A model generated the notes under the pieces. That model ran no database searches and was not told the DNA's origin. It saw only the letters and a list, made by a program, of their open reading frames with translations. The translations under genes and the position numbers were made by a program. Positions 32,158 through 51,776 of a stretch of DNA of 64,000 nt are shown in pieces (position 1 is the stretch's first letter; every line of letters begins with the position of its first letter). The DNA comes from a virus (lineage: Duplodnaviria > Caudoviricetes): positions 1-64,000 of the IMG/VR virus record IMGVR_UViG_3300026085_000093; one strand, given 5' to 3'.

Positions 32158-33279
32158 ATGAAGTATAATGCATGGAATTATAACGATCTAAATGCTTTTC
32201 ACGTAGAATTAAGTACACGATGCAATGCAGCGTGTCCAGGCTGTCCAAGATTCTTACGTAATAGCACTAATGTCGATCCGGAAGTTGTGCAAACGGATAT
32301 TACAATTGATTTGTTTAAAAGATGGTTTCCATTAGATCTTGTACAAAAATCTAAAAGTTGGATATTTTGCGGAACACATGGAGATCCATTGGCCTGTAAT
32401 GATATATATGATATATTAGATTACATATGTTCTAACAGTATAGCAACTATACAAATTAACACCAATGGAGGCTTGCGCACTCCGGATCATTTCCGTGCAA
32501 TAGGAGAATTGTTTTTAGAAACAACAAATGGTTTAAACCCAAAACCAATGCGTAAAATTACATTTAGTATAGACGGCTTAGAAGATACTAACCATATATA
32601 CAGAAGAAATGTTATTTGGGATAAAGCATGGAATAACATGATTGCATATGCATTTACAGGTGCGCACACTGATTGGGACTTTTTACAATTCAAACACAAC
32701 AAACATCAGGTAGAACTTAGCAGAAAAATTGCACAAGAAAATGGTATTAATTTTGTATTAAAAAATCCATTCGGTGTCGACGGCACAGGTATGCCAGCAT
32801 ATGACAAAGACTACAACTTAGAATATGTCCTAGAACATGCTACAGACAACGGACATGATCATTACACTCCTGCTCCATTAGGTTGGGAAGCAGATATGCC
32901 AGCGCCAGTAACAGAAGAAGGTGTAATTGCTTGTAACAGTTTTAGAACTTTGCCATATCCATACCATGAAGAACCAATGGTCGAACTATATATAGATGCA
33001 TTAGGAAGAGTTCATCCTTGTTGCTTTGTAGGAAATAAAATGCAAGGCCCTAGATATGTTCCTGAAGCAAGAGAAATGCAAACACTACAAAAAACACTAG
33101 GCGATGCAAATAATTTACATCATCATAGACTTGATCAGATTATAGACGGAGGCGTACTTGCAGTTTATTCAGAAAGTTGGCAATCAAAATCAATCAGTCA
33201 ATGCTGGGTCCAATGCGGAAAGTCCTGTGGAAAAGTCAGAGAAATTGACAAACTCTTCGAACTCTCCGAAGAAATGTAA
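32158..33279 (+). CDS. Radical SAM protein with a SPASM/twitch domain
   Basis: CNAACPGC and C-terminal VHPCC...C..QC. Confidence 0.85.
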   Translation: MKYNAWNYNDLNAFHVELSTRCNAACPGCPRFLRNSTNVDPEVVQTDITIDLFKRWFPLDLVQKSKSWIFCGTHGDPLACNDIYDILDYICSNSIATIQINTNGGLRTPDHFRAIGELFLETTNGLNPKPMRKITFSIDGLEDTNHIYRRNVIWDKAWNNMIAYAFTGAHTDWDFLQFKHNKHQVELSRKIAQENGINFVLKNPFGVDGTGMPAYDKDYNLEYVLEHATDNGHDHYTPAPLGWEADMPAPVTEEGVIACNSFRTLPYPYHEEPMVELYIDALGRVHPCCFVGNKMQGPRYVPEAREMQTLQKTLGDANNLHHHRLDQIIDGGVLAVYSESWQSKSISQCWVQCGKSCGKVREIDKLFELSEEM

Positions 33280-34327
33280 ATGGCTAGATAATCACATCAG
33301 TATGGATACTTTGGGTAACTTACGGCCTTGCTGTAATTGGGATGACCGTGACAGAAACGATCTTGTAAAAGTTTCAGATATCAAAAAATACAAAGACAGT
33401 GACTTTTTAGCAAGTGTTAGGAAAGATCTTGATAATGGAATATTTCCCGAAGGATGTAGAGATTGTGAGGAAGAAGAATCTTATGGCTTTGAAAGTTTAC
33501 GATTGCAAAGCGATAGAAAATATAAGAACAATCGCAAAGACGCTGAGATAAAATTTGGAAACAAATGTAATCTTTCGTGTTCAATGTGTGGTCCTGTTAA
33601 CAGTAGTTTAATAGATACAGAACTAAGAAAATTAGATTCGCAAGATATACAACACAAACTGATACAAAGACAAAAATATTCATTTGATTTATGGTATGAA
33701 GACGAAAAAAATATACAAAAACTTGCCGAATTTTTACATGATAGAGATGAAATACGTTTCACAGGTGGAGAACCAACTGTAAATAATTATCTTCAAAAAT
33801 TTTGCGAATATTTGTTAGTATATGATAGTAAACCTAGTTTGCGTATTACTACAAATGGAAATAACTTACCTACGAAATTACTTTCAATCTTAGAAAAATT
33901 TGACGTTGAATGGCATTTTAGCATTGACGGTTATAAAGAAGTAAACGAATATATAAGGTATCCTAGCAATTGGGATAAAATTATAAAAAACATAGCAAAA
34001 GCACAACAAATCGGTACAAGTGATGTTTGTACAACTGTAAGTTGGTTGAATGTAAAACACATGGAACCATTAGGCGAATGGATCATGTCAAATAATTTTG
34101 AACGATGGGAAGTTTATCCTGTAAACAGTCCTAAAGAATTTGCACCTTGTCATGCACCTGATAATCATAAACAGATTTATGTAGATTTGTGTGCCACATA
34201 TACAGATCTTAAAAGAAGCTTGCCGGCAGTAATCCGAGAACGGAACATTGATTATTTTGATCAAGGTATGAGTTATCAAAAACATTTAGATAGATTGAGA
34301 GGAACATCTATTGAAACGGTATTTTGA
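33158..34327 (+). CDS. Radical SAM protein with an N-terminal Fe-S (twitch-like) segment
   Basis: RPCC...CRDC, CNLSCSMC and GGEP; true start probably downstream of 33158. Confidence 0.8.
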   Translation: MQFIQKVGNQNQSVNAGSNAESPVEKSEKLTNSSNSPKKCKWLDNHISMDTLGNLRPCCNWDDRDRNDLVKVSDIKKYKDSDFLASVRKDLDNGIFPEGCRDCEEEESYGFESLRLQSDRKYKNNRKDAEIKFGNKCNLSCSMCGPVNSSLIDTELRKLDSQDIQHKLIQRQKYSFDLWYEDEKNIQKLAEFLHDRDEIRFTGGEPTVNNYLQKFCEYLLVYDSKPSLRITTNGNNLPTKLLSILEKFDVEWHFSIDGYKEVNEYIRYPSNWDKIIKNIAKAQQIGTSDVCTTVSWLNVKHMEPLGEWIMSNNFERWEVYPVNSPKEFAPCHAPDNHKQIYVDLCATYTDLKRSLPAVIRERNIDYFDQGMSYQKHLDRLRGTSIETVF

Positions 34328-35442: not shown

Positions 35443-38142
35443 ATGAGTTATGTAGATGCATTCTTTGACCGTGATCAAGATATCATTCGTGTTGTAGAAC
35501 GCAAAGATGGAAAGCGACATTTCCACGAATATCAAGCAAAATATACATTTTATTATGAAGATCCTAGAGGCAAATATAAAAGTGTCTATGGCGATCCTCT
35601 TACACGTATTGTGTGTAAAAACACAAAAGACTTTAGAAAAGAAGTTGCTATTAACAAAGGCAAGAACTTGTTCGAAAGCGACATTAATCCTATCTTTCAA
35701 TGTTTAAGTGAAAATTATCTTAATCAAGATGCACCCAAACTAAACATTGCGTTTTGGGATATTGAGACGGACTTTGATCCAGAGCGTGGCTTTGCTCCAG
35801 TTGAAGATCCGTTTATGCCAATTACTGCTATTACTGTATGTTTACAATGGCTAAACAGTGCGCTAATTACACTTGCTGTTCCACCTAAAGGTATGAAGCA
35901 TGAAGATGCTGTTGCTATGTGTAAAGAACGTTGGGGAGACGAAGTAATACTTTTCACTAATGATAAGAACGGCGATGGTGAAAGACAAATGTTACAGACG
36001 TTCTTAGACTTAATTGAAGATGCAGATGTACAAAGTGGTTGGAACTCAGAAGGTTATGATGTTCCGTATACTGTTAATAGAATTAAACGTGTACTCAGCA
36101 ACGATGATACAAGACGTTTTTGTTTATGGGGACAGTTGCCCAAGAAGCGTGAATATGAAAAATTTGGTAAAACGTCAGAAACATATGACTTTGTAGGTCG
36201 TGTGCATTTAGACAGTTTGGAACTATATCGAAAATACACATATGAAGAACGTCATACATATAGACTAGATGCGATTGGTGAAATTGAAGTAGGCGAAAAC
36301 AAAACTGTTTATGAAGGCACACTTGATCAATTGTATAATCAAGACTTTGAAACATTTATTGAATATAACAGACAAGACGTTGCACTACTTGACAAACTAG
36401 ATAAGAAATTACGTTTTATTGATTTAAGCAATTCAATTGCACATGAAAATACAGTGCTTCTACAAACAACAATGGGTGCTGTTGCTGTAACAGAGCAAGG
36501 TATTATCAACGAAGCACACAACAGAGACTTACGTGTACCAAATCGGCCAAAGCGTGATGACACAGAAAGCACACAAGCCGCTGGTGCTTATGTTGCGTTT
36601 CCTAAAAAAGGTGTACACAAATGGATCGGTTCAATGGACTTGAACTCACTGTATCCAAGTGTGATTCGTGCGTTGAATATGGCTCCAGAAACTATCATAG
36701 GACAAATACGTCCTGAAATTTCTGAAGCTCGTGTTACTGAAGATATGGGGTTAAAGAAAAAGTCGTTCGCAGGTAGTTGGGAAGGACGTTTCAGCACAGA
36801 AGAATACGAAGCAGTTATGGAACAACGCAAAGATGTTGCACTAACTGTTGACTGGGAAGATGGTCGTTCAGATGTATTAAGTGCTGCCGAAATACATAAA
36901 CTTGTTTTTGATTCAAACATGCCTTGGATGCTTAGTTCAAATGGCACTATTTTTACTACAGAATTTGAAGGCGTTATTCCAGGTATCCTAAAGCGTTGGT
37001 ATGCAGAGCGTAAAGACATGCAAAAGATGCTTAAGAAAGCAAAAGACGCTAAAAATGATGCGGAAATTGAATACTGGGATAAAAGGCAACTTGTTAAAAA
37101 AATTAACTTGAACAGTTTGTATGGTGCTATTTTGAATCCAGGTTGTAGATTTTTTGATAAGCGTATCGGTCAATCAACTACACTCACAGGTCGTACTATT
37201 GTTAAGCACATGAGTGCAGAAGTAAACAAAGTTATCACAGGCAAATACGATCACGTAGGAGAAAGTGTTATCTATGGTGACACAGACTCTGTGTACTTTA
37301 GTGCATATCCGACATTACGTAAAGAAATCGAAGCAGGTAATATTCCTTGGAGTAAAGACAATGTAATTACATTATATGATCAAGTAGCAGAAGCAGCAAA
37401 TGCTACGTTCCAAGAATTTATGCTAAAGGCATTTCATTGTCCAAAGAGTCGTTCAGATGTTATTGCCGCAGGTAGAGAAATTGTTGCAGAAAGCGGATTG
37501 TATATTACAAAGAAGCGTTATGCGGCACTAGTGTATGATGTAGAAGGTTTCCGTTCAGATGTAGATGGCAAACCAGGTAAAGTAAAAGCAATGGGCTTGG
37601 ACTTGCGTAGATCAGATACTCCAGTGTTTATGCAAGAGTTCTTAAGTGAAATTCTTCTTATGGTGCTACAAGACAAACCAGAAAAAGAAATCCTAGATCG
37701 TATTACTACGTTCAGAAAAGAATTTTCACAACGTCCAGGTTGGGAAAAAGGCACACCAAAACGTGCAAACAAGATTGGACACTATCAGCGTCTTGAAGAA
37801 CGCCAAGGCAAGGCCAATATGCCAGGGCACGTTAGAGCAAGCATCAATTGGAATACGCTAAAACGCATGAACGGCGACAAGTATTCGCAAGAGATTGTAG
37901 ATGGCATGAAAGTTATTGTTTGTAAATTAAAGCAAAATCCATTAGGGTTTACTTCAGTAGCATATCCTACAGATGAACTACGTATTCCAGAATGGTTTAA
38001 GGAACTACCATTTGATGATGCAGCAATGGCAGAAACTATTATTGACAACAAACTAGATAACTTGATCGGTGTGTTGAACTATCCACTAGAAGATACAAAA
38101 CAGCACACTACATTTAACAGTTTGTTTGAATTTGGAGTATAG
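35443..38142 (+). CDS. Family B DNA polymerase (gp43-like)
   Basis: Exonuclease DIET, DLNSLYPS, KINLNSLYG and YGDTDS motifs. Confidence 0.97.
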   Translation: MSYVDAFFDRDQDIIRVVERKDGKRHFHEYQAKYTFYYEDPRGKYKSVYGDPLTRIVCKNTKDFRKEVAINKGKNLFESDINPIFQCLSENYLNQDAPKLNIAFWDIETDFDPERGFAPVEDPFMPITAITVCLQWLNSALITLAVPPKGMKHEDAVAMCKERWGDEVILFTNDKNGDGERQMLQTFLDLIEDADVQSGWNSEGYDVPYTVNRIKRVLSNDDTRRFCLWGQLPKKREYEKFGKTSETYDFVGRVHLDSLELYRKYTYEERHTYRLDAIGEIEVGENKTVYEGTLDQLYNQDFETFIEYNRQDVALLDKLDKKLRFIDLSNSIAHENTVLLQTTMGAVAVTEQGIINEAHNRDLRVPNRPKRDDTESTQAAGAYVAFPKKGVHKWIGSMDLNSLYPSVIRALNMAPETIIGQIRPEISEARVTEDMGLKKKSFAGSWEGRFSTEEYEAVMEQRKDVALTVDWEDGRSDVLSAAEIHKLVFDSNMPWMLSSNGTIFTTEFEGVIPGILKRWYAERKDMQKMLKKAKDAKNDAEIEYWDKRQLVKKINLNSLYGAILNPGCRFFDKRIGQSTTLTGRTIVKHMSAEVNKVITGKYDHVGESVIYGDTDSVYFSAYPTLRKEIEAGNIPWSKDNVITLYDQVAEAANATFQEFMLKAFHCPKSRSDVIAAGREIVAESGLYITKKRYAALVYDVEGFRSDVDGKPGKVKAMGLDLRRSDTPVFMQEFLSEILLMVLQDKPEKEILDRITTFRKEFSQRPGWEKGTPKRANKIGHYQRLEERQGKANMPGHVRASINWNTLKRMNGDKYSQEIVDGMKVIVCKLKQNPLGFTSVAYPTDELRIPEWFKELPFDDAAMAETIIDNKLDNLIGVLNYPLEDTKQHTTFNSLFEFGV

Positions 38143-38666: not shown

Positions 38667-38919
38667 AAGACTTTTTATAGCATTTAGTATTTTCATAAAT
38701 GTTATACTTGGAGGCAGGATTAATCAAACATTTAGTGCAAGGAACTGGCAAAGAAAACGTGACAATAAAATAAATCTAGTGTATATTATTAATACAATAT
38801 TTAGGAATAATGATCACTGTTGGGAAAGTTGGGTAAAATGGACAATAATAAATGGTGCAATAAAAAGGTATGATGAAGAAATGGGTTTTGATAGAAAGAG
38901 GAGGCATTGGTACGAATGA
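38650..38919 (+). CDS. Hypothetical protein
   Basis: N-terminal hydrophobic segment; QTFSAR...DHC. Confidence 0.55.
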   Translation: MKKYLRRLFIAFSIFINVILGGRINQTFSARNWQRKRDNKINLVYIINTIFRNNDHCWESWVKWTIINGAIKRYDEEMGFDRKRRHWYE

Positions 38920-39341
38920 AAGTAGGATTTACCGCATCGACCTTCGATTTACTTCACGCCGGGCATATACAAATGCTACGTGAAGCAAAAGAACAGTGTG
39001 ACTATCTTATATGCGGATTACAAATGGATCCCAGTGTAGATAGGCCAGAAAAGAATCCACCTGTACAAACAATAGTGGAACGTTATACACAACTCAAAGG
39101 AGTTAGTTATGTAAATGAAATAATTCCTTATGCAACTGAACAAGACTTAGAAGATATCTTGACAATGTATCATATTGATGTTAGAATACTAGGTGAAGAG
39201 TATCGTGAAAAGGATTTTACTGGCAAGGATATTTGCAAGAAGCGGGGTATCCAGCTACATTTCAATAAAAGAGATCACCGCTTCTCAAGCAGCGATTTAA
39301 GAAAACGAGTATGCGAAAGGGAAAGAAATGCCACTACCTGA
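38916..39341 (+). CDS. Cytidylyltransferase (TagD/RfaE-like)
   Basis: STFDLLHAGH HxGH motif and C-terminal FSSS. Confidence 0.85.
   Translation: MKVGFTASTFDLLHAGHIQMLREAKEQCDYLICGLQMDPSVDRPEKNPPVQTIVERYTQLKGVSYVNEIIPYATEQDLEDILTMYHIDVRILGEEYREKDFTGKDICKKRGIQLHFNKRDHRFSSSDLRKRVCERERNATT
39159..39187 (+). promoter_or_regulatory. Sigma70 promoter inside the cytidylyltransferase gene
   Basis: TTGACA-N17-TAGAAT. Confidence 0.5.
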
Positions 39342-39495
39342 AGGACGTAAAGCACTAACTGATCAAGATATGGTAATCTTGCTACACAATATAGCAAGAG
39401 ATTTAGAAAACACAGACCTTAGACTTACAGCAGATAGGTTTAGTGAACTAGCCAAAGCAGCAAGCGAAGCACAGCATAGGGCGAAGCAAGGATGA
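39328..39495 (+). CDS. 55-aa hypothetical protein (not in the track)
   Basis: MPLPEGRKALTD...; overlaps neighbours. Confidence 0.5.
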   Translation: MPLPEGRKALTDQDMVILLHNIARDLENTDLRLTADRFSELAKAASEAQHRAKQG

Positions 39496-39647
39496 TACGA
39501 AATACTGATCCAACATGTGATGAACTTAGAAAAATTTTTATAGAAAATGGATTACAATTTTATATCAAAAAAGAAAAGAAGGGTATTGTAAAAGTACACT
39601 TTATAACTAGAGAGGAAGAAAATGATGTGGACACTGTTGATAATTAG
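39492..39647 (+). CDS. 51-aa hypothetical protein (not in the track)
   Basis: MIRNTDPTCDEL...; ATGA overlap. Confidence 0.45.
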   Translation: MIRNTDPTCDELRKIFIENGLQFYIKKEKKGIVKVHFITREEENDVDTVDN

Positions 39648-39783
39648 TTCACTTGTAGATATTAATGAATACAAAGTTACAAGATTTAATGATTATCCTA
39701 CAGAAAAACAATGCAGCATTAATGCAGCAGTTCTTGAAGCATTGTTTACAGAAGGAGAAAAGGCGGTATGCATAAATGAATAA
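39622..39783 (+). CDS. 53-aa hypothetical protein (not in the track)
   Basis: MMWTLLII...C...C; GAGGA RBS. Confidence 0.5.
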   Translation: MMWTLLIISSLVDINEYKVTRFNDYPTEKQCSINAAVLEALFTEGEKAVCINE

Positions 39784-40492
39784 GTTTATTTTTGATGTCG
39801 ACGGAACACTAACTCCAAGTAGACAAACTATCGATCCTGAGTTCAACAAATTCTTTTTTGATTTTGTAACAACTAATGATGTATATTTGATTACAGGCAG
39901 TGACAAAGATAAAACAGTTGAACAAATTGGTAATGTTTTGTTTTGTACAGCAAAAGTTGTTTATAATTGTTCTGGAAACGATGTTTGGAGTCACGGTGTT
40001 AATGTAAAAACCAATGACTGGACGGCACCAAAAGAACTTATGGATCTAATGCATGGTTGGCTACAAGCAAGTAATTTTCCTTTACGCACAGGTAACCACA
40101 TCGAAGTGCGTCCAGGTTGTGTTAACTTTAGTATAGTTGGACGTAACTGCACACTAGGCGAACGTAAATTATATATTAAACACGATCTCGAAAGTAGAGA
40201 ACGTGAAAGTATTGCTTATCAAATTAACACAGAATTTGAAAACATAACAGCAAAAGTAGGAGGAGAAACAGGTATTGATATCTATCCTACAGGTTGTGAC
40301 AAATCACAAATTATTAATGATTTTAACGACCATGACAAACTAATCTTTTTTGGCGATAGACAAGAACCTGGTGGTAATGACGAACCATTATCAACTGCGA
40401 TTGCCAAGAGAGGCAATGGTAAATCCTATCATGTCAAAGACTGGAAGGATACAATGGAGATCTTAAATGAAAGTTATGTTAACAGGCCATAG
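39776..40492 (+). CDS. HAD-IIB phosphomannomutase-like enzyme
   Basis: FDVDGTLT, NFSIVGRN and FFGD...GGND motifs of the eukaryote-type PMM family. Confidence 0.8.
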   Translation: MNKFIFDVDGTLTPSRQTIDPEFNKFFFDFVTTNDVYLITGSDKDKTVEQIGNVLFCTAKVVYNCSGNDVWSHGVNVKTNDWTAPKELMDLMHGWLQASNFPLRTGNHIEVRPGCVNFSIVGRNCTLGERKLYIKHDLESRERESIAYQINTEFENITAKVGGETGIDIYPTGCDKSQIINDFNDHDKLIFFGDRQEPGGNDEPLSTAIAKRGNGKSYHVKDWKDTMEILNESYVNRP

Positions 40493-41243
40493 AGGCTTTA
40501 TTGGGAGTCATTTACTAAAAAGACTTACAAAAAAACATAGTGTTGTAGGGTTTGATCTTAAGGACGGTTGGGATAGAGACAAACTTAACAACAGCCAAGA
40601 TCTAACAACTTGTGACCTAAAAGAAGAATTTGATTTAATTATACACCTAGCAGGAAAAAGTGGTGTTCGTGAATCAATGAAGGATCCTGCAGGTTATTGG
40701 CTTCATAATGTAGAAGTCACCAAAAGACTTTTAGAACGCTATCCAGACACACGTATGTTGATTGCAAGTTCAAGTTCAGCATATGAGCCACATCTAAATC
40801 CATATGCAGCAAGCAAGTATATCGTAGAAGAAGCAGCATCATGTTATTCCAATACGCTATGTATGAGATTCCATACAGTTTATTCTGATAATCCTCGAAA
40901 AGGTATGTTTATGCAAAAGTATCTAGATGGAGAACTTGAATATGTTACAAACCATTACAGAGATTTTATACATATTGAAGATTTATGCGATGCAATAGAA
41001 TTATGTATGAATAGCAAGTATAAAGGAGAAATTGATATAGGTACAGGACATCCTTTTCGTATCCGTGACTTTGTAGAAGATTTGCCCATCCGTCTAAATA
41101 CCCCAAACGAAAGACAATGGACTTGTGCAAATACGGAAAAAATTAAAACACTAGGCTTTAAACCTAAATACTCAGTAGAAAAACTATTGACAAACAGCAG
41201 ATTAGGCAATATAATAGAATTTAACAATGGAGAAACAGTATGA
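40467..41243 (+). CDS. NAD-dependent epimerase/dehydratase
   Basis: TGHRGFIG, HLAG and YAASK. Confidence 0.88.
   Translation: MKVMLTGHRGFIGSHLLKRLTKKHSVVGFDLKDGWDRDKLNNSQDLTTCDLKEEFDLIIHLAGKSGVRESMKDPAGYWLHNVEVTKRLLERYPDTRMLIASSSSAYEPHLNPYAASKYIVEEAASCYSNTLCMRFHTVYSDNPRKGMFMQKYLDGELEYVTNHYRDFIHIEDLCDAIELCMNSKYKGEIDIGTGHPFRIRDFVEDLPIRLNTPNERQWTCANTEKIKTLGFKPKYSVEKLLTNSRLGNIIEFNNGETV
41187..41215 (+). promoter_or_regulatory. Perfect sigma70 promoter for the clamp/dpdA-like genes
   Basis: TTGACA-N17-TATAAT. Confidence 0.75.
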
Positions 41244-41968
41244 AAGATATCTTACAAGATGTTGTGTCGCACACACATAGTCTCGGTTTTATTACAACAT
41301 TAAAAGTTGTTGCAGAACAAGAGACTAGTATCGAAAGTATGGCAGAAGATAGAAGTGTTGTACTTAGTGCAACAACTCATTCGCCTGTGTCGGAATTTGT
41401 AGGTACATTTGGTATGCCAGATTTAAATAAACTTGCATATCATTTGAAGAACCCAGAATACCAGGACAAAGCAAAAATTGATGTGGTACAGGAAGAACGC
41501 AACGGAGAAATTATTCCAACACATATTCATTTTGAAAATGAAGTTGGCGACTTCCAAAACGACTATCGCTTTATGAATAAAGCAATTATCGAAGAAAAAT
41601 TAAAAAGTGTTAAATTCAAAGGTAGCACATGGGATGTAGAATTTACTCCAAGTGTTGCAGCAATTGCACGTATGAAACTAATGGCTGGTGCTCATTCAGA
41701 AGAACCAGTATTCCAGGTCAAAACAGAAGATGGAAATCTAAACTTTTACTTCGGTGACTTGAATACACACGCAGGTAAGTTTACATTCCAACACGATGTA
41801 GGTGGAACCTTGCAACACACTTGGGCATGGCCAGTTGCGCAAACTATTTCTATTTTAGGACTAGATGGCGATAAGAAAATTAGCATCACAGATCAAGGTG
41901 CTATGATGATTACAGTAGACAGTGGTATGGCCAAGTATGACTATATCCTGCCAGCACAAAGTAAATAA
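41240..41968 (+). CDS. Probable DNA polymerase sliding clamp (gp45/PCNA-like)
   Basis: 242 aa, two-domain beta/alpha pattern ending YDYILPA; PolB and RFC are in the window. Confidence 0.6.
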   Translation: MKDILQDVVSHTHSLGFITTLKVVAEQETSIESMAEDRSVVLSATTHSPVSEFVGTFGMPDLNKLAYHLKNPEYQDKAKIDVVQEERNGEIIPTHIHFENEVGDFQNDYRFMNKAIIEEKLKSVKFKGSTWDVEFTPSVAAIARMKLMAGAHSEEPVFQVKTEDGNLNFYFGDLNTHAGKFTFQHDVGGTLQHTWAWPVAQTISILGLDGDKKISITDQGAMMITVDSGMAKYDYILPAQSK

Positions 41969-43425
41969 TGAATACAAATTTAACTGCAACACAAAATGAC
42001 TATGCTGTTTTTCTGCCTGCGTTGAGTGGCTTTTATGCTACTTACGTGGGCAAACAGCGTTTTGAAAACTATGTTGATCCTGCTAGAATACCAAGCAATT
42101 TAAATAATGGCGTTGAAAGTCTTAACTATCTAAATAAAGATCAAGGACAGTTTCAATATAAGTGGACATTGTACTCAGCAGGACATGCTGACTTAGATAC
42201 TACAAAACATGCACCTAAGGAAGATATGGTGCGTAACAGAGATAGAGCAAACACTTGGCTACTTGGTGACTCAGGTGGCTTCCAGATTGGTAAGGGTGTT
42301 TGGGAAGGTGACTGGAAAGATCCAAACTGTCCAAAAGCACAAAAGAAACGTGATGGTGTATTGCGTTGGATGGATGCTTATATGGATTATGGTATGATAC
42401 TTGATATTCCCGCCTGGGTTGCACGTTCACCTGCAGGTGCAAAAGCAACAGGCATTAGTACATATGCAGAAGCAGTTAAAGCAACACGTATTAATAATGA
42501 TTATTGGATGAAGCATCGTACAGGTGCCTGTAAGTTTTTGAACGTACTACAAGGCGAAAATCATGCAGATGCAGATGACTGGTACGATCAAATGAAAGAC
42601 TACTGTGATCCAAAAAAATATGAAGATCATTTTAACGGATGGTCAATGGGTGGACAAAATATGTGCGATGTACACCTTGCTCTTAAACGTGTTGTTTCAC
42701 TACGTTTTGACGGATTGCTTGAAAAGGGCAAACATGATTTTATGCACTTCTTAGGAACTTCAAAACTTGAGTGGGCTACACTACTAACAGACATTCAACG
42801 AGCAGTGCGCAAATATCATAACGAAAACTTTACTATCACATTTGATTGTGCTAGTCCTTTCCTTGCAACTGCTAATGGACAAATCTACTGTGAACTGGAA
42901 ACAGAAGACAGAAGTAAATGGGTATATCGAATGGTGCCAAGCATTGACGATAAAGCACTAGCAAACGATACTACTCCGTTTAGTCAAGCATTTGTAAGAG
43001 AAGGAAAACACCCTAGTTTCTTAGATTCACCAATAACAACAGGATTACAAGCCAAAGATATTTGTATCTATGGTCCGGGTGATCTAAATAAAATAGGCAA
43101 AGAAGGCAAGACCTCATGGGACAGTTTTTCATATGCTGTTATGATGGGTCATAATGTATGGATGCACATTAACGCAGTGCAGGAAGCAAACCGCCAATAT
43201 GATGCAGGTATTATTCCTAATATGTTAATACAAGAAAAGTTTGATAGAATTGCGTTTAGAGATATTGTTGATGCAATTTTTGAAACCGATAACAGACAAA
43301 AAGCCGAATCTCTCATTTTAGAATTTTCTAAATATTGGGACAGTATTATAGGTACTAGAGGCAATACAGGAAAGCGTATTGTAAATGCACAAACGCAATT
43401 CAACAATCTATTTGAGGAACTATAA
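41968..43425 (+). CDS. dpdA: tRNA-guanine transglycosylase-like protein (DpdA-like DNA 7-deazaguanine transglycosylase)
   Basis: TGT motifs DSGGFQ, LDIP, VLQG, GG, HFLG and FDC; located next to folE/queE. Confidence 0.75.
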   Translation: MNTNLTATQNDYAVFLPALSGFYATYVGKQRFENYVDPARIPSNLNNGVESLNYLNKDQGQFQYKWTLYSAGHADLDTTKHAPKEDMVRNRDRANTWLLGDSGGFQIGKGVWEGDWKDPNCPKAQKKRDGVLRWMDAYMDYGMILDIPAWVARSPAGAKATGISTYAEAVKATRINNDYWMKHRTGACKFLNVLQGENHADADDWYDQMKDYCDPKKYEDHFNGWSMGGQNMCDVHLALKRVVSLRFDGLLEKGKHDFMHFLGTSKLEWATLLTDIQRAVRKYHNENFTITFDCASPFLATANGQIYCELETEDRSKWVYRMVPSIDDKALANDTTPFSQAFVREGKHPSFLDSPITTGLQAKDICIYGPGDLNKIGKEGKTSWDSFSYAVMMGHNVWMHINAVQEANRQYDAGIIPNMLIQEKFDRIAFRDIVDAIFETDNRQKAESLILEFSKYWDSIIGTRGNTGKRIVNAQTQFNNLFEEL

Positions 43426-43607
43426 TGATGGGACATAAAGAACATTTAGTTGAACTGAAAAGAAAACATAGAAAACTAGATGAAGAAATTATTGAACTTG
43501 AAAAATCGTATGTTGTAGATGACGAAATTAGAAAATTAAAAACAAAAAAACTTTGGTATAAAGATGAAATTCATAGACTGGAGAATATAATTGCGTTCAG
43601 AGAATGA
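43425..43607 (+). CDS. DUF465/YdcH-like coiled-coil protein
   Basis: LKRKHRKLDEEI...LKTKKLWYKDEI. Confidence 0.65.
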   Translation: MMGHKEHLVELKRKHRKLDEEIIELEKSYVVDDEIRKLKTKKLWYKDEIHRLENIIAFRE

Positions 43608-43767
43608 AATTAGATTAGAAGCATTACAAATGGCCCTAGAAGAAATTGAAAAAATCATTGACAGTATGCATAAAAACAATTATACTAATGAAGAAATTAA
43701 TGAATACAACAAAAAACGTTGGGACATTTGGAACGAAATGTATAAGGTAAAAAATGGCAAAGGTTGA
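43591..43767 (+). CDS. 58-aa hypothetical protein (not in the track)
   Basis: TTG start after GGAG; helical. Confidence 0.45.
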   Translation: MRSENEIRLEALQMALEEIEKIIDSMHKNNYTNEEINEYNKKRWDIWNEMYKVKNGKG

Positions 43768-44068
43768 AGAAACAGTAGCAGCCCTAAAGGGTATACCTAC
43801 AAAAGATGAATTAGTTGCATTGTTAGAAAAGCAAGTCGTTGAAGTAACTTTTAATAAATTAGACGGCACTGAAAGAGTAATGCCTTGTACTCTTATGCCT
43901 TCATTCTTTCCAGATCCAAAGAAAGATACAACACAAAAACACGAAAAAAATGTTGTTGTGTGGGCAATTGAATCAAACGCTTTTAGAAGTTTTAGGTACG
44001 ATCGTGTTAAAAAAGTAGAAGTTATTCAATATGGCAACGGCGGCAACGAATGGGAGGCTCAATATTAA
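43754..44068 (+). CDS. Sm-like/WYL_2 (DUF2693-like) protein
   Basis: VTFNKLDGTERVMPCTL...FRSFRYD. Confidence 0.65.
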   Translation: MAKVEETVAALKGIPTKDELVALLEKQVVEVTFNKLDGTERVMPCTLMPSFFPDPKKDTTQKHEKNVVVWAIESNAFRSFRYDRVKKVEVIQYGNGGNEWEAQY

Positions 44069-44622
44069 TGAATAGAGATTATTCTACAGGTTCTGCAGAT
44101 GATGCTATTTACTTTATCGGTAACGAAGTAGAACGCACACCTGCATTTGGCTTAAAAACTTTGTTTATTACAGGCAAACAGCCTTTAGAAGAAATTAAAG
44201 GCATTGCTAATGTGAATAAAATCAAGCATTTGTTTTTTGGTTCTAATCATAGTTTTAAACCCGAGACTAGTGAAGATTGGGACTGGTGGGAATCGATGAT
44301 CAAGGATTGTCTAGATGAAGGTTACTATTGCAGTTTAGATATTCCTATTGCACTTGCAGAAGAATTTCTCGAAAGTGGTTTGACAGAATACGAAAATTTT
44401 ATTCCACAACTAAGAGTTCCTATTCCATATATTAAACTATGGAATTATAACACTATGTTAAAAATCGATGATAAAGATTTTAAGGCAACTAATCCAGGTG
44501 TTTGGTGTCATAGTTTACACGACTTAATGGATAGGAAAAAATTTACTGACTGGTCTAATTATGCATCAGATGAAATTATTGAGTTGACAACTATCGAAAA
44601 TGGTACTATAGTAAATGAGTAA
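44068..44622 (+). CDS. Uncharacterised protein inside the deazaguanine locus
   Basis: 184 aa, directly upstream of the T-fold gene. Confidence 0.65.
   Translation: MNRDYSTGSADDAIYFIGNEVERTPAFGLKTLFITGKQPLEEIKGIANVNKIKHLFFGSNHSFKPETSEDWDWWESMIKDCLDEGYYCSLDIPIALAEEFLESGLTEYENFIPQLRVPIPYIKLWNYNTMLKIDDKDFKATNPGVWCHSLHDLMDRKKFTDWSNYASDEIIELTTIENGTIVNE
44584..44612 (+). promoter_or_regulatory. Sigma70-type promoter
   Basis: TTGACA-N17-TATAGT; if real, the T-fold gene starts at a downstream ATG (44654 or 44666). Confidence 0.5.
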
Positions 44623-45076
44623 CAACAAAGAACCCGAGCGCTATTATGATTGGATGCTTTGGAAAATGCGACAGGAAGATAATAAATTGGCAAATAGTTT
44701 AGAAAATGCAAAACGTAGTATTTGGGTAACATTCCGTAAAGAAGGTATCCATTTGTATCCTGCGGCAAAAGACGACCCGGCACTTGCAACAGGTGGTTGG
44801 GATGATGTAAGTTTCTTAGGTGTAGCACATAGACACATCTTTCATTTCAAAGTACAAATTCAAGTAACACACAATGATAGAGATATTGAATTTATTCAGT
44901 TCAAGCGTTGGCTCGAAAGTCTTTATGATGATAAGGTTATTGAACTTAATCACAAGTCTTGCGAAATGATCGCAGACGACTTGTATATCCAGATTAACAA
45001 CAAATATCCCGGCCGCTTTGTTGTTATTGATGTCGCCGAAGATGGCGAAAATGGCTGTCAAATTGTTTACCCATAG
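44615..45076 (+). CDS. QueD-paralog T-fold enzyme, DpdL-like (putative CDG decarboxylase)
   Basis: LGVAHRHIF fits LxxxHRHxF; also IEF..FK, SCE and EDGENG. Confidence 0.7.
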   Translation: MSNNKEPERYYDWMLWKMRQEDNKLANSLENAKRSIWVTFRKEGIHLYPAAKDDPALATGGWDDVSFLGVAHRHIFHFKVQIQVTHNDRDIEFIQFKRWLESLYDDKVIELNHKSCEMIADDLYIQINNKYPGRFVVIDVAEDGENGCQIVYP

Positions 45077-45094
45077 AAAAAAGGATTAAGGTAA

Positions 45095-45307
45095 ATGACT
45101 ATTACATTCAATCGTGACGCTTACAATAAAGTGTTTAATGATTTGGATAAATTCCGCGACTACTGTCGTTTCGAAGGAAAGGTCTTTAACGAGGCTGATT
45201 TATATAAAAAGGATTCGCCTATTTGGCAGTCTTATATTAAACATCAAAATTATATTCGTGCTAAGTCACGTAACGCAAGCCGAAGTTTTAACAATCGGAG
45301 AAACTAA
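45095..45307 (+). CDS. Small hypothetical protein
   Basis: AAGG RBS; 70 aa. Confidence 0.55.
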   Translation: MTITFNRDAYNKVFNDLDKFRDYCRFEGKVFNEADLYKKDSPIWQSYIKHQNYIRAKSRNASRSFNNRRN

Positions 45308-46356
45308 TGACAATTTACATTGTAGATATCGAAGCAGTTGATACACGCTACACAAAGCAATGGAAAGACTATCTTCCGAAGCAACTACAACGATCTACAA
45401 ACGAAAATGTAAAAGTCATTAGTGGTGGGGAAACGCCTCAGGCAACAACGCCTGGGGCATTTCTCAATTTTGGTGGAACTAATGTTTATAAGTCCAAACA
45501 ACTAGAAATTATAGGCGAAATGTTTTGCAAAGGGCAAATTCAAAGTGGAGATTATTTTTTATATACCGATGCTTGGAACCCTACTGTTATTCAGTTACGT
45601 TATATGGCAGAACTCTTGGACGTTGATGTTAGCATCGGCGGGCTTTGGCATGCTGGTAGTTATGACCCTCATGACTTTCTTGGCAGGTTAATTGGAGATA
45701 AACCGTGGGTACGTCATGCAGAACAGGCAATGTATGAATGTTACGATGATAACTTTTTTGCAAGTAATTTTCATATTGAATTATTTGCACAAAGTTTAGA
45801 CATTGATCCAGATAAAACACATCGTGTAGGCTGGCCTATGGAATATTTACGTAGTAGTTTAGATCAATACAAAGGTATGGAGAAGCGTAATCTTATTCTT
45901 TTCCCACATCGTCTTGCCCCAGAAAAACAAGTTGATGTATTCCATGATTTGAAACAGCAACTTCCGCAATATGAATTTGTTGTATGTCAAGAGCAAATGC
46001 TTTCTAAAAATGAATATCACAACTTGTTAGGAGAAGCAAAACTTGTGTTTAGTGCTAACTTACAAGAAACACTTGGTATTAGTTGGTACGAAGGCGCACT
46101 TGTTGATGCTATTCCTATGGTTCCTGATCGCCTTTCTTACAGTGAAATGGCATTGCCTGAATTTAAATATCCTAGCCAATGGACTGAAGATTATAGTGCA
46201 TATAGAAAACATAGAGGAGATATTGCTGCCAAGATTGTTGACTATATGGAAAACTACAATGACTATCTTATAAGTTTAGAAAAACAGCGTATTAGACTTA
46301 ACAAAGAATTTTTTGACGGAACAGAACTATACAGGAATATTGCAGATGGGCAATGA
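45307..46356 (+). CDS. GT-B fold glycosyltransferase (GT4-like)
   Basis: PHRLAPEKQ and the ETLGISWYE EX7E motif. Confidence 0.8.
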   Translation: MTIYIVDIEAVDTRYTKQWKDYLPKQLQRSTNENVKVISGGETPQATTPGAFLNFGGTNVYKSKQLEIIGEMFCKGQIQSGDYFLYTDAWNPTVIQLRYMAELLDVDVSIGGLWHAGSYDPHDFLGRLIGDKPWVRHAEQAMYECYDDNFFASNFHIELFAQSLDIDPDKTHRVGWPMEYLRSSLDQYKGMEKRNLILFPHRLAPEKQVDVFHDLKQQLPQYEFVVCQEQMLSKNEYHNLLGEAKLVFSANLQETLGISWYEGALVDAIPMVPDRLSYSEMALPEFKYPSQWTEDYSAYRKHRGDIAAKIVDYMENYNDYLISLEKQRIRLNKEFFDGTELYRNIADGQ

Positions 46357-46666: not shown

Positions 46667-46893
46667 TGCAACATCCAATTGAAGAATGGATCAGACGTAT
46701 CAATGCAATGAAAGATTTATGCATACAAGCACATAGAGTGCGTAACGAATTTGCAGAAATCAGTTATAAACAATATGACGAATCTACTTGTAAGCACTTA
46801 CTAGAACAAGTTCAATCAATGGCAGCAGGTATTGCAAACGAAAAAATAACTGATATAAAAACTGAAATGGATGAGTGGAAAAAGAATGATTAA
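46666..46893 (+). CDS. Hypothetical protein
   Basis: TAATG-coupled ORF. Confidence 0.5.
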   Translation: MQHPIEEWIRRINAMKDLCIQAHRVRNEFAEISYKQYDESTCKHLLEQVQSMAAGIANEKITDIKTEMDEWKKND

Positions 46894-47467
46894 GAAACAT
46901 TATTATTCGTGGCAAGACGTAGAAAAGATGTGTGCAAGTATTGTCATGCAGATGTATAAAGATAATTGGCGTCCTGATTACATTGTAGGTATTACACGAG
47001 GTGGTAACATTCCTGCTACTATTATTAGTAACATGACAGGCATCCGTTGTGAAGCACTTAAAGTAAGTTTGCGTGATAACGGTAATGGCGAAAGCGAAAG
47101 CAACTGTTGGATGGCAGAAGATGCATTTGGATATGAAGATATGAAACTTCAAACCCATAACCAAGACATTCAAGCAAGTGCAAATGTTGATATTATCACT
47201 ATAGAAAACAAAAGTAATATCCTTATTGTAGACGATATTAACGACACTGGTGCAACATTTAACTGGATTGTTAATGACTGGCAAGCCAGTTGTTTACCTG
47301 ATCATGATCGATGGAGCAGAGTTTGGGACGAAAACGTTCGTTTCGCAACATTAACTGAAAACTTATCAAGTGCCTGCGGATTAGTGCGTTATTATGCACA
47401 CGAAATTAATAAAGCAGAAGAAAACGTTTGGTTAGTTTATCCTTGGGAGAATGTAAATGAGTACTGA
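46886..47467 (+). CDS. Type I phosphoribosyltransferase (Gpt/Hpt-like)
   Basis: VGITRGG, PRPP loop LIVDDINDTGAT and C-terminal WLVYPWE. Confidence 0.88.
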   Translation: MIKKHYYSWQDVEKMCASIVMQMYKDNWRPDYIVGITRGGNIPATIISNMTGIRCEALKVSLRDNGNGESESNCWMAEDAFGYEDMKLQTHNQDIQASANVDIITIENKSNILIVDDINDTGATFNWIVNDWQASCLPDHDRWSRVWDENVRFATLTENLSSACGLVRYYAHEINKAEENVWLVYPWENVNEY

Positions 47468-47772: not shown

Positions 47773-48456
47773 ATGAGCAAATCAAAACAAATTACAGCCC
47801 GCTTGCAAGATGCAGGCATTCGCTATTGGGCCGGCGACAACATTTCAGAAGTCCTACAAGCAGGCGACAAAGAAGAACTTATTGAAGATGCTACAGTAGC
47901 ATTTGAAGGTGTACTAGATGCACTACTAATCGATCGACATAACGATCCTAATTCACAAGGTACTGCAAGGCGTCTTGCTAAGATGTACTTTAATGAAATT
48001 ATGGCAGGACGATATGATCCTATTCCAAGTGCTACAGCATTTCCAAACCATGTAGATGAAGGTTACAAAGGTATGTTAGTTGTAAGAAGCGAACTTAAAA
48101 GTATGTGTTCGCATCATCATCAACCAGTAAACGGTGTAGCATATATTGGTATTATTGCCGCTGATACACTTATCGGACTTTCAAAGTATACACGTATTGC
48201 ACAATGGTGTGCTAGACGTGGTACACTACAAGAAGAACTTAATAATGTTATTGCAAATGAAATACAGAAAGCAACAGGAAGTCCTAACGTAGGTGTGTAC
48301 ATTCAAGCAACACATGGTTGTTGTGAAAATAGAGGTATTGGTGCACACAGCAGTCTTACACAAACAACTGTACTACGTGGTGCATTCTATGATGATCCTA
48401 GTACTAAGAAAGAGTTTATGGATAATATAAAACTACAACAGGAATTTGCTTGCTAA
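47773..48456 (+). CDS. folE: GTP cyclohydrolase I
   Basis: SMCSHHHQP, GLSKY.RI, LQEEL and HGCCENRG. Confidence 0.95.
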   Translation: MSKSKQITARLQDAGIRYWAGDNISEVLQAGDKEELIEDATVAFEGVLDALLIDRHNDPNSQGTARRLAKMYFNEIMAGRYDPIPSATAFPNHVDEGYKGMLVVRSELKSMCSHHHQPVNGVAYIGIIAADTLIGLSKYTRIAQWCARRGTLQEELNNVIANEIQKATGSPNVGVYIQATHGCCENRGIGAHSSLTQTTVLRGAFYDDPSTKKEFMDNIKLQQEFAC

Positions 48457-48562: not shown

Positions 48563-49201
48563 ATGTCAAGGTTAATTGCATTTGGTTGTAGTTTGACATA
48601 CGGCGATAATTTAAAAGATATATGGCCGCACAATGAAGAGTCGAGCAAACTTGCTTGGCCTTCTGTTGTTTCTAAACTATTAAATTTAGAATGCATTAAC
48701 AAAGGAGTAAGTGGTTATTCAAATAAAGAAATACTTAACGATTTGTTGACATTTGAATACCAAAAAGGTGACACAGTTATTTGTTTATGGACATTTCATC
48801 AGAGACATGCAATACTTACTGAAGAATTATCAACACCTGCAATTTCAATTAAACCGTGGGAAATGAAAAACAATAAAGCAATTAAGTCATATTTTAAAAA
48901 TCTTTACACAGATTATGATTCTAATTGGACAACTAACTTATACATGAGAGTAGCGAAATCTTACTTTGACGAGCATAACATAATTAATTACCATGCTAAT
49001 GCAAAACCATGGATCTTCCAACAGGAAAAATGGAATAACATAAATTTTATTCCAGTAGAAGACATTGATACAATTCGAAACAAAGAAAGCAGTGATTTGG
49101 CAAAAGACAAACGTCATCCAGGTTACAGAGTGCATAAAGAGTTTGGTACAAATATTGCAAATTATATAAAGGAACAGACACATGAAATTACGTTACAGTG
49201 A
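48563..49201 (+). CDS. SGNH/GDSL-like protein
   Basis: FGCSLTYG, NKGVSGYSN and DKRHPG. Confidence 0.55.
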   Translation: MSRLIAFGCSLTYGDNLKDIWPHNEESSKLAWPSVVSKLLNLECINKGVSGYSNKEILNDLLTFEYQKGDTVICLWTFHQRHAILTEELSTPAISIKPWEMKNNKAIKSYFKNLYTDYDSNWTTNLYMRVAKSYFDEHNIINYHANAKPWIFQQEKWNNINFIPVEDIDTIRNKESSDLAKDKRHPGYRVHKEFGTNIANYIKEQTHEITLQ

Positions 49202-50075
49202 AGCATTTTATAGTGTACAAGGTGAGGGTAAATACGTAGGAGTACCTAGCGTATTTTTACGTACATTTGGTTGCAACTTTCGTTGTATGAATTTTGGATT
49301 ACCTAAGGACAAAGATCGTTGGGAGCAACACGCAGAAGGCAATCGGTACAATCCAGAAGTAAAGGCACTACTTGACGCAGGCGTACACGAAACTACAGAA
49401 AAATTTGAAGATTTACCTATTATTCACACAGGCTGTGATACATATGCTAGTATCTATCCAGAGTTTAAACACTTTAACAAACTTGCAGAAGTAGACGAAG
49501 TTGTAGATCATTTGATTAGTTTATTGCCAGAAGGCAAATGGACACAAGACAATGGACAAGATATTCATTTGATTATGACAGGTGGTGAACCATTACTTGC
49601 ATGGCAACGACTTTACGTAGAGTTGTTTGAACATCCGAAAATGAAAGATTTAAAAAATGTCACGTTTGAAACAAACACTACACAATTTTTACATGATGAT
49701 TTGTTCGATTACATCAACAATAATGACAGAATTGAATGGACATTTAGTTGTTCTCCTAAACTTTCCGTCAGCGGAGAAACTTGGGAGTCAGCTATCAAAC
49801 CTGATGTCCTGCGGGATTACGCTCGTTGTGACAGCAGTTCTGTTTATCTTAAATTTGTTGTTGCTGATATGGATGATGTTGATGAAGTTAGTAGAGCAGT
49901 TAGTGAATATCGTGCAGCGGGTGTGGAATGCCCTGTCTATCTTATGCCGCTTGGCGGTCGCTCGGAAGGGTACAACATCACGGTACAAGAGGTGGCGAAG
50001 CTCTGTATGGAACGAGGCTGGAGGTTCACTCCGAGACTCCACATTAGCCTATTCGGAAATGCCTGGGGAACATAA
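49182..50075 (+). CDS. queE: 7-carboxy-7-deazaguanine synthase (radical SAM)
   Basis: FYSVQGEG, FLRTFGCNFRC...CDT, TGGEP, CSPK and PRLH. Confidence 0.9.
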   Translation: MKLRYSEAFYSVQGEGKYVGVPSVFLRTFGCNFRCMNFGLPKDKDRWEQHAEGNRYNPEVKALLDAGVHETTEKFEDLPIIHTGCDTYASIYPEFKHFNKLAEVDEVVDHLISLLPEGKWTQDNGQDIHLIMTGGEPLLAWQRLYVELFEHPKMKDLKNVTFETNTTQFLHDDLFDYINNNDRIEWTFSCSPKLSVSGETWESAIKPDVLRDYARCDSSSVYLKFVVADMDDVDEVSRAVSEYRAAGVECPVYLMPLGGRSEGYNITVQEVAKLCMERGWRFTPRLHISLFGNAWGT

Positions 50076-50540: not shown

Positions 50541-51776
50541 ATGACGAATGAAATAGAAGATTTATACAAAAATTTTTGTGTCCATCCTTTTGTTAAAATG
50601 TTTGTGACAACAACAGGGCATATGAAAGCCTGTTGTTATGCAAAACAATTAGATTCAGACGATATTAATATTCTAGGCAAGGATGTCGATGAAGTATGGA
50701 ACAGCAAGACTTTACAAAAATTAAGACACAAATTCAATCAAAGAATCATCCCTAAAAATATCTGTAAAAGTTGTATTGAAAGTGAAGAACAGGGAATCAT
50801 TTCAAACCGACAGTATGAAAATCATAAATGGAAATCATTAGCCGATTATTATTATAAAAATGCCCATACAGTTGTTCCTAGTCCTCTGAGTTTTGATTTG
50901 AGAATGAGCAACGAATGTAACTTGCAGTGCGTGATGTGCCTCCCTACATTGAGCAATCAAATTGCAAAGAACATGCTAGAATATAATAAATTCGGCAAAA
51001 GCAATCCTTATACCAATAGTAAAGACCTAGAAGTTCTTTCTACATCATCTAATAATTTCAACCAGCGATTTGTTGACCATATACTTGAAAATGCAAAAAG
51101 AACTCAAGAGATTGTGGCAGTCGGCGGCGAGCCGTTTGTGATGAAGGGATTTACATCTTTGATAGAAGAATTAGTGAATAGAAAAGAAAGCGGTCATATA
51201 AAGGTACACATAATTTCAAATGGCACAATTATCAAAGAATCATGGATAGAAAAATACCTTACAAAGTTTAAGCATGTAAACTTATCAATAAGTTTGGATG
51301 CTACTGGAAAAGTTTTAGAATATGTTCGATACCCTAGTTCTTGGTCTGCATTGGAAAGCAAGATTTTAAGATCTAAAAAAATATGCGACCAATATGAGAA
51401 TTTTCAAATTACCTTAGAGCCTACAATACAATTGCTAAATCTAAAAGATTTGCCAAATTTGCTTGACTTTATTAAACAAAATAAGTTTCCTTTTAATACA
51501 ACATTTTTAGATTGGCCAGAGCCATTACATTTTGCCAACTCACCCATTGATTACAGAATTGAAATTGTAAAAAAAATTGAAACTTTCTTACCAGAGTTAA
51601 AAACTTTAGACCTAATAGACGACTACAACTGGTTAGATTGGATTAAAACGGAGCCACAAAAAACTTTATCAGATAAACAACGTGATTATTTTAGATACAT
51701 GTTGGATTATTTTGACAGTACAAGAGCAACAAAATTCTTAGATCTTTATCCTGAATTTGGTTTTTTAAAAGATTGA
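50541..51776 (+). CDS. Radical SAM protein with an N-terminal twitch-like segment
   Basis: ACC...CKSC, CNLQCVMC and GGEP. Confidence 0.82.
   Translation: MTNEIEDLYKNFCVHPFVKMFVTTTGHMKACCYAKQLDSDDINILGKDVDEVWNSKTLQKLRHKFNQRIIPKNICKSCIESEEQGIISNRQYENHKWKSLADYYYKNAHTVVPSPLSFDLRMSNECNLQCVMCLPTLSNQIAKNMLEYNKFGKSNPYTNSKDLEVLSTSSNNFNQRFVDHILENAKRTQEIVAVGGEPFVMKGFTSLIEELVNRKESGHIKVHIISNGTIIKESWIEKYLTKFKHVNLSISLDATGKVLEYVRYPSSWSALESKILRSKKICDQYENFQITLEPTIQLLNLKDLPNLLDFIKQNKFPFNTTFLDWPEPLHFANSPIDYRIEIVKKIETFLPELKTLDLIDDYNWLDWIKTEPQKTLSDKQRDYFRYMLDYFDSTRATKFLDLYPEFGFLKD

Follow-up and report, generated by a model that had tools for sequence, protein, structure and literature searches.

The question raised by this locus is what a phage glycosyltransferase (GT) that lies among genes for 7-deazaguanine DNA modification actually glycosylates. 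The window analyzed here comprises the first 64 kb (positions 1 to 64,000; about 36% GC) of the 236-kb IMG/VR viral record IMGVR_UViG_3300026085_000093, which CheckV estimates to be 66% complete. It derives from an uncultured jumbo phage with deazaguanine DNA-modification genes, and these genes are real and lie where the initial annotation had placed them (Table 1). That annotation had proposed a glycosylated 7-deazaguanine, or another glycosylated base, as the product of the locus. What is established is the identity of the genes, the fold of the GT with its catalytic motifs, and a near-obligate linkage between the GT and DpdL, a paralog of QueD. The explanation to which we give about an even chance is that a sugar is placed on a DpdL-derived 7-deazaguanine species that ends up in DNA, an explanation for which we infer the acceptor, the stage, the sugar and the DNA endpoint.

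The evidence that carries this explanation is the company that the GT keeps in other phages. Its family comprises 1179 clusters at 50% identity (E up to 1e-3) with more than 8000 near relatives, and two samples of loci were compared. One consists of the 80 nearest IMG/VR loci by similarity to the window GT, whose GTs are 55-69% identical to it (hereafter the relatives); the other has 79 loci for which a family member of 30% identity served as the reference for ranking, and there genes were counted by hidden Markov model. Among the relatives, DpdL is present in 75, a conserved 190-residue protein (P4_190) in 72, the DNA transglycosylase DpdA in 69, GTP cyclohydrolase I (FolE) in 65, the 7-carboxy-7-deazaguanine (CDG) synthase QueE in 55 and a purine phosphoribosyltransferase (PRTase) in 53. 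The second sample contains DpdL in 74 loci, QueE in 62, FolE in 60 and QueD in 33, and DpdL lies no more than 1.5 kb from the GT in 61 of the 79. Pooling gives 158 viral loci, whose GTs group by single linkage at 50% identity into 13 clusters. Of these loci 147 have DpdL, and each of the 11 without it lies on a contig that stops no more than 750 nt upstream of the GT. Where the upstream flank is intact, DpdL accompanies the GT at 147 of 147 viral loci, a linkage that is far beyond chance and near-obligate on the GT side. Three further contigs, reached through 28-33%-identical representatives, carry a DpdL with the HRHxF motif zero to two genes upstream of the GT and have PTPS, QueE and FolE nearby, on very different backbones that include small phages with polB and terminase. 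Co-occurrence of the GT with dpdA in related genomes, which the initial annotation had named as the point on which its reading could fail, is strong by these counts, and the tightest partner of the GT is DpdL rather than DpdA or any one DpdA type.

The pairing extends to cultured phages, namely PA5oct-like phages, Phosso, ACP17, BUDD/X1 and BCSR5. The order is FolE, a homolog of the 190-residue protein, DpdA, GT, DpdL and QueE in ACP17; clamp, DpdA, GT, DpdL, an epimerase-domain protein, PRTase and QueE in PA5oct-like phages; DpdL, GT and then FolE in Phosso; GT, DpdA and DpdL in BUDD; and GT followed by DpdA in BCSR5. The persistence of the module through shuffled gene orders speaks for a functional link and against mere inherited synteny. 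DpdL itself also occurs in phiST, RHph_I1_18 and Ahp1, where a profile search found no member of the GT family. At the window locus a single small open reading frame (ORF), o70, separates the GT from DpdL, as first described, and we infer that DpdL, o70 and the GT form one tightly coupled unit, because a promoter-like site lies ahead of all three and the o70 stop and GT start overlap (TAATG) with GGAG just before. This site is near-consensus, and similar ones precede the clamp (a strong one, 41187-41215), the WYL_2 gene and FolE; promoter-like sites overall are not enriched relative to shuffles.

Such linkage bears directly on the possibility that the DNA carries plain 2'-deoxy-7-deazaguanine (dDG), with the GT, sharing only early expression with the replication module, working on something unrelated, for instance glycans of the host envelope, a protein of phage or host, or a different base. 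GT4 enzymes that do not target DNA are common in phages, the problem of the acceptor discussed below would vanish, and a GT homolog in the Xanthomonas phage PhiXhv-12, 22% identical, occurs without DpdL. Co-regulation alone does not, however, predict a 147 of 147 linkage that holds through rearranged gene orders, differing backbones and translational coupling, and the GT model shows no sign of a signal peptide or of a membrane segment; we consider an unrelated target quite improbable. The PhiXhv-12 homolog sits in a cassette (L086:4861-8947) of GlmS-like, BshB-like deacetylase, GT and GFO oxidoreductase genes, and at a distance of about 94 kb from it there is an ORF with weak resemblance to DpdA (E 2e-4).

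The assignment of the gene at 45307-46356 to the GT-B glycosyltransferases is borne out by a confidently predicted GT-B/GT4 fold. The AlphaFold2 model, based on an alignment of 60 diverse family members, has a predicted local distance difference test score (pLDDT) of 96.4 and a predicted template modeling score (pTM) of 0.93, and consists of two Rossmann-like domains in the GT-B arrangement. Structural matches span residues 1-349 at Z 22-27 and are led by sucrose-phosphate synthase (SPS; Z 27.1), BshA (Z 26) and MshA (Z 25.7), with GlgM, PglA and glycogen synthase among the others, all of them GT4-type retaining enzymes; Foldseek gives E 1e-9 to BshA, MshA and GlgA, and Swiss-Prot models agree. 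The EX7E motif is formed by E254-x7-E262, and across the 60 members E262 is invariant while E254, R202 and K207 are each at least 90% conserved. In GT4 enzymes this motif and the R/K pair serve the nucleoside diphosphate (NDP)-sugar, and because they are invariant or nearly so across the family the GT looks catalytically competent. Neither Pfam nor PHROGs recognizes the GT by itself, which scores 13.7 bits against Pfam Glycos_transf_1, under the gathering threshold of 26.4, and sequence-only searches of PDB and Pfam returned nothing useful. Weak matches to PF00534 (Glycos_transf_1) are given by 47 of the 60 family members (best 1e-8), and the BUDD homolog clears the threshold at 45.7 bits.

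By its predicted fold the GT is a generic GT4 enzyme and not a recognizable DNA or queuosine glycosyltransferase. The initial comparison with base glycosylation in T4 does not hold at this level, as the nearest folds are BshA, MshA and SPS rather than the T4 DNA glucosyltransferases: neither the alpha- nor the beta-glucosyltransferase (AGT, BGT) ranks among the 50 best PDB matches with either of the two aligners, and in BFVD an S-TIM5 “DNA alpha-GT” is matched only weakly, at rank 44 and TM 0.54. A QTMAN-like enzyme was likewise rejected, with QTMAN_N (PF12038) absent from the 60 family members at E up to 0.1 and QTMAN not among the top 30 Swiss-Prot folds. The resemblance to BshA and MshA, which perform the first steps of bacillithiol and mycothiol synthesis, includes the EX7E motif and a root-mean-square deviation of about 3 Å over about 305 residues, but identity is 11-13% and the window context is unrelated to thiol biosynthesis. 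The PhiXhv-12 homolog, adjoining its BshB-like deacetylase, does recall the context of BshA.

These folds raise a second possibility, that the GT puts its sugar on a soluble intermediate which stays out of DNA, for example a pterin made by FolE and a PTPS-like DpdL or free CDG or 7-deazaguanine (DG), for the purpose of detoxification, storage or shielding of the base from host tRNA-guanine transglycosylase (TGT). BshA, MshA and SPS act on small soluble acceptors, pterin glycosides occur in cyanobacteria, and a tetrahydrobiopterin glucosyltransferase (9v0l) aligns to the GT at Z 22; moreover DpdL is a PTPS/QueD paralog whose activity is so far a proposal, and the GT is tied to it and not to one type of DpdA. 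Against this, the pterin enzyme is no closer than generic GT4 enzymes (Z 22 vs 27), QueE and a DpdA-type gene are present in most loci, phiST makes dDG with DpdL and without a GT, and the gain to a phage from a soluble glycoside is unclear. A soluble product is in our judgment unlikely.

A product that reaches DNA depends on the deazaguanine genes. The window DpdL (P0003) carries LGVAHRHIF, an instance of the LxxxHRHxF signature that separates DpdL from QueD with its CxxxHGH (Cui et al. 2023, PMC10516641). It shares 51-66% identity with GT-flanking genes of ACP17, PAC2 and Phosso (51%, 9e-44 for the ACP17 gene) and 33% with DpdL of phiST (7e-11). Because homologs align only from residue 33 onward, the true start is probably a later Met. 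The role of DpdL as a CDG decarboxylase is a proposal whose reconstitution was unsuccessful (PMC10516641).

On motif and profile comparison, the 485-residue protein encoded next to the clamp is a divergent TGT-fold DpdA. It shows the TGT motifs DSGGFQ, QG, HxLG and FDC, is 36% identical to the gene immediately upstream of the GT in PAC2 (PA5oct-type), and aligns across the motifs with the DpdA3-type proteins of BUDD, BCSR5 and ACP17 at an hhalign probability of 89% (E 2e-6). Its language-model neighbors are TGT and DpdA clusters, with scores of 0.93 and 0.89. The Pfam TGT/DpdA profile gave zero matches for 28 DpdA-like members and none in six-frame searches at E up to 10, the protein has no match in PDB by sequence, and its sequence contains no CxCxxC zinc site. 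The gene begins at the stop codon of the clamp, and the C-terminal residues of its product are ...QFNNLFEEL. Searches of the 236-kb record turned up neither QueC nor a canonical QueD/PTPS; as the record is 66% complete, this does not prove their absence.

The mechanism we favor is an apparently QueC-less, DpdL-type 7-deazaguanine DNA pathway extended by a dedicated GT4-type retaining GT. FolE and QueE, with QueD coming from the host or from the unsequenced third of the genome, would produce CDG, which DpdL, probably with P4_190, would convert to a DG-type base for the clamp-adjacent DpdA to swap for guanine in DNA. The GT would move a sugar from an NDP-sugar to the deazaguanine species, whether already in DNA or still a base or nucleotide awaiting insertion, and virion DNA would carry a glycosylated deazaguanine with a donor sugar that varies by lineage. 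The closest precedent is the DpdL-type system of phiST (FolE, QueD, QueE, DpdL and DpdA3), for which dDG is proven (PMC10516641). Both systems have an LxxxHRHxF DpdL, FolE and QueE, a highly divergent TGT-fold DpdA and a location among replication genes, and QueC, missing from phiST, was not found in the 236-kb record either. Unlike the window, phiST has neither a GT family member by profile search nor the 190-residue partner, whereas the window has no detectable canonical QueD and a DpdA of another subtype, related to DpdA3 at the hhalign level only.

Several observations weigh against a sugar on a DNA-bound deazaguanine. Unsubstituted DG offers no hydroxyl to a retaining O-glycosyltransferase. 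No oxygenase is evident at the window locus, and a 160-residue cupin-like protein with an HDHPW...H motif, found between GT and PRTase in 53 of the 80 relatives (e.g., L032:12905-13384; closest L006-L008), is absent from the window genome by tblastn and has no Pfam match in the relatives. The structures nearest to the GT are small-molecule GT4 enzymes, with T4-like DNA glucosyltransferases missing from the top matches, the GT is acidic (pI 5.0, a value for the whole protein that is not decisive on a DNA-binding groove), and the PhiXhv-12 homolog manages without DpdL. The interpretation first offered for this locus is partly supported.

Candidates for a maker of the acceptor differ between lineages. 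A cupin hydroxylase was considered and rejected, the HDHPW protein being missing here and not resembling, at profile level, the cupin annotated in L094. P4_190, whose AlphaFold2 model has a pLDDT of 85, gives no clear fold match (Z at most 6.8); its homolog lies directly upstream of dpdA in ACP17 and elsewhere in PA5oct. The idea that it is a stripped-down QueE was dropped, as the three QueE structures matched at Z 5.7-6.3 amount to noise and hhalign against QueE and radical SAM profiles gave less than 1%. In 27 of the 79 divergent loci, mostly ones without P4_190, DpdL and the GT are separated by the gene of a radical SAM enzyme, either a SPASM type of about 300 residues or another form of about 440, which often ends at the GT start (e.g., L109:6712-8004, L143:6529-7401 and L117:6364-7659, within L104-L145), and this enzyme may be an alternative maker of the sugar acceptor. 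The twitch radical SAM enzyme of the window was rejected as a core member, only one of the 80 close relatives sharing it. By hmmsearch the genome holds at least 12 radical SAM paralogs besides QueE, unusually many for a phage, ten of them clustered at 69155-93897 on the minus strand beyond the window and others at 32158-33279, 33158-34327 and 50541-51776.

Other accessory genes would fit a pre-replicative route, in which the PRTase would make a 7-deazaguanine ribonucleotide, the GT would act on the nucleotide or nucleoside, and the modified dNTP would be polymerized. The toyocamycin and tubercidin pathways use nucleotide-level chemistry, and the PRTase (also in PA5oct), the HIT protein found inside the cluster in 32 of the 80 relatives and the IMPDH/GMP-reductase found there in eight, sometimes directly upstream of the GT, resemble its steps (e.g., L009:8952-9998 and L034:13898-14305); the cluster is moreover embedded between polB and clamp genes. 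A DpdA-type transglycosylase is nevertheless present and conserved, ACP17, BUDD and many loci of the second sample have no PRTase, and a kinase or reductase set specific for the analogue was not identified. All known deazaguanine DNA modifications are, furthermore, held to be post-replicative (PMC10516641), and there is in our view little chance that the pre-replicative route is the right one. Among the relatives, L015 has an ABC transporter (NMT1/THI5-like binding protein, ATPase and permease), a 2-oxoglutarate-Fe(II) oxygenase and an arylsulfotransferase inserted after FolE (L015:11792-16180), and L014 has a xanthine/uracil permease at the same position (L014:11819-13108).

Returning to the favored mechanism, the donor sugar would be supplied by genes between polB and the clamp. 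The cytidylyltransferase, the phosphomannomutase (PMM)-like HAD and the NAD epimerase do lie there, within the replication module and at the coordinates first given, and since no other GT1- or GT2-type gene was detected in the 236-kb genome they are taken to serve the GT. They form a coherent minimal predicted route of mutase (sugar-6/7-phosphate to sugar-1-phosphate), nucleotidyltransferase and short-chain dehydrogenase/reductase (SDR) epimerase. The best NCBIfam match of the nucleotidyltransferase is RfaE domain II, a heptose-1-phosphate adenylyltransferase, at 72 bits against an equivalog cut-off of 181.5, and the epimerase matches GalE and heptose-epimerase N-terminal models under their cut-offs, the heptose epimerase model scoring 37 bits against 275. 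The resemblance to the ADP-heptose pathway (HldE/GmhB/HldD) is only a lead on the identity of the sugar, and the three enzymes would here make an NDP-heptose or NDP-hexose.

As a conserved partner of the GT this trio is ruled out, being found with the GT in only three of the 80 relatives: the PMM-type HAD and the epimerase each occur in three, and the nucleotidyltransferase in 10, five of which have it between P4_190 and DpdL. It is one of several interchangeable NDP-sugar sets. A UDP-glucose/GDP-mannose dehydrogenase occurs in 37 relatives, either in the polB-clamp gap or just after the GT, and a pair of GFO_IDH_MocA and zinc alcohol dehydrogenase (ADH)-like genes in 24, between DpdA and P4_190; at least one NDP-sugar-type gene lies inside the cluster in 50, and such genes shift between slots. 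Relatives would thus use the UDP-sugar dehydrogenase or the GFO/ADH oxidoreductase pair in place of the trio, and we read the exchange as lineage-specific tuning of the GT donor sugar, parallel to the phage HAD, cytidylyltransferase and GT-B set that makes heptosyl-5-hydroxymethylcytosine (heptosyl-5hmC) DNA (bioRxiv 10.1101/2023.12.21.572611). In one divergent lineage a GT2-family glycosyltransferase lies directly upstream of the GT4-like gene (L096:7429-8975), which hints at a disaccharide there.

The 5hmC systems (T4 AGT/BGT and the heptosyl-5hmC cluster) resemble the window in having a phage GT-B beside base-modification genes, a phage-encoded NDP-sugar supply (HAD and nucleotidyltransferase) and sugars that vary by lineage. 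They use a pyrimidine hydroxymethyl acceptor, whereas the partner pathway here makes a purine analogue without an obvious hydroxyl, and the window GT is GT4-like with EX7E rather than T4 BGT- or AGT-like. A second comparison is with QTMAN, which like the window GT is a GT-B/GT4-type enzyme. Full-text literature searches found no report of a GT in dpd clusters or of a glycosylated deazaguanine in DNA, and the initial statement that no glycosylated deazaguanine had been described stands for DNA but not for tRNA, where mannosyl-queuosine (made by QTMAN/GTDC1) and galactosyl-queuosine of animals are the only described glycosylated 7-deazaguanine nucleosides (PMC12518689). Their acceptor is the cyclopentenediol of queuosine in tRNA, and in the phage no route to it by way of QueC, QueF, QueA or QueG is apparent.

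The whole block runs from polB to the twitch radical SAM gene (Table 1). Megablast of the region against cultured phages returned zero matches. The ORF of 212 residues in the FolE-QueE gap is present in only two of the 80 relatives and is not QueD.

Table 1. Features of the modification block in the window, in order of position
Feature	Coordinates	Strand	Basis or remark
polB, B-family DNA polymerase	35443..38142	+	49-52% identity to Phosso and PAC2 DNA polymerases; block start
Three small ORFs	between polB and nucleotidyltransferase	+	
Cytidylyltransferase-like sugar-/polyol-phosphate nucleotidyltransferase	38907..39341	+	PF01467 4e-15
Three small ORFs	between nucleotidyltransferase and PMM-type HAD	+	
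PMM-type HAD-IIB phosphosugar mutase or phosphatase	39776..40492	+	PF03332 3e-24; TIGR01484
Short SDR NDP-sugar epimerase/dehydratase	40467..41243	+	PF01370 5e-24
Sliding clamp	41240..41968	+	32-36% identity to PCNA/sliding-clamp-annotated genes of PAC2 and Phosso
Predicted divergent TGT-fold DpdA-like DNA transglycosylase, 485 aa	41968..43425	+	DSGGFQ motif, hhalign, language-model neighbors
Two small ORFs	between DpdA-like gene and WYL_2 gene	+	
WYL_2 protein	43754-44068	+	
Conserved 190-aa protein (P4_190), no assigned function	44050..44622	+	homologs in 72/80 relatives
Sigma-70-like promoter TTGACA-17-TATAGT	44584..44612	+	directly ahead of DpdL-o70-GT
DpdL (P0003), QueD-like paralog, proposed CDG decarboxylase	44615..45076	+	LGVAHRHIFHF motif; homology
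Small basic ORF (o70), 70 aa, pI 9.9	45095..45307	+	homologs in 47-57/80 relatives
GT4-type retaining GT-B glycosyltransferase	45307..46356	+	predicted fold, EX7E motif
Two small ORFs	between GT and purine PRTase	+	
Type I purine PRTase	46871..47467	+	PF00156 3e-10; xanthine/HGPRT-like
GTP cyclohydrolase I (FolE)	47773..48456	+	PF01227 1e-37
212-aa ORF, FolE-QueE gap	48563-49201	+	weak ATP-grasp (GshA/GshB-like) match
QueE (CDG synthase)	49182..50075	+	phrog_2076 7.5e-50; QueE NCBIfam matches
129-aa ORF	between QueE and radical SAM gene	+	
Twitch/SPASM radical SAM enzyme	50541..51776	+	NF033640 1e-81; pathway membership uncertain

To our knowledge, all glycosylated DNA bases are pyrimidines (5hmC, 5-hydroxymethyluracil/base J and 5-hydroxycytosine), and we know of no DNA deazaguanine that carries anything other than a small C7 group. 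A wider reading, which we hold tentatively and as somewhat short of even, is that the locus encodes the first glycosylated purine analogue in DNA, shared with the cultured phages PA5oct, ACP17, Phosso and BUDD, with lineage-variable sugars and a role in counter-defence. The sugar would be a heptose or hexose here and a uronic acid in phages with a UDP-sugar dehydrogenase. DpdL and P4_190 or, in other lineages, the radical SAM enzyme would make the acceptor handle, and the sugar would counter DNA glycosylases specific for deazaguanine and nucleases of the END type. Since glycosylases that act specifically on 7-deazaguanine DNA are encoded by hosts (bioRxiv 10.1101/2025.10.29.685425), selection for a decorated base is plausible. 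ACP17 has been listed as a DpdL/DpdA phage, and reconstitution of dDG from its genes failed (Cui et al., PMC10516641); the DNA of PA5oct, which END nucleases target, resists cleavage at restriction sites that contain G, its modified G not having been identified (PMC12191111). A sugar-bearing deazaguanine, if true, could explain both results. It would add a chemically new class to the known DNA modifications and would mirror the logic of T4, in which a sugar on the modified base lets it escape enzymes that target that base. Phages that carry both the GT and DpdL probably make a sugar-bearing purine in DNA that has not been described before, and as the GT family is abundant and occurs in therapy-relevant cultured Pseudomonas jumbo phages, the hypothesis is directly testable.

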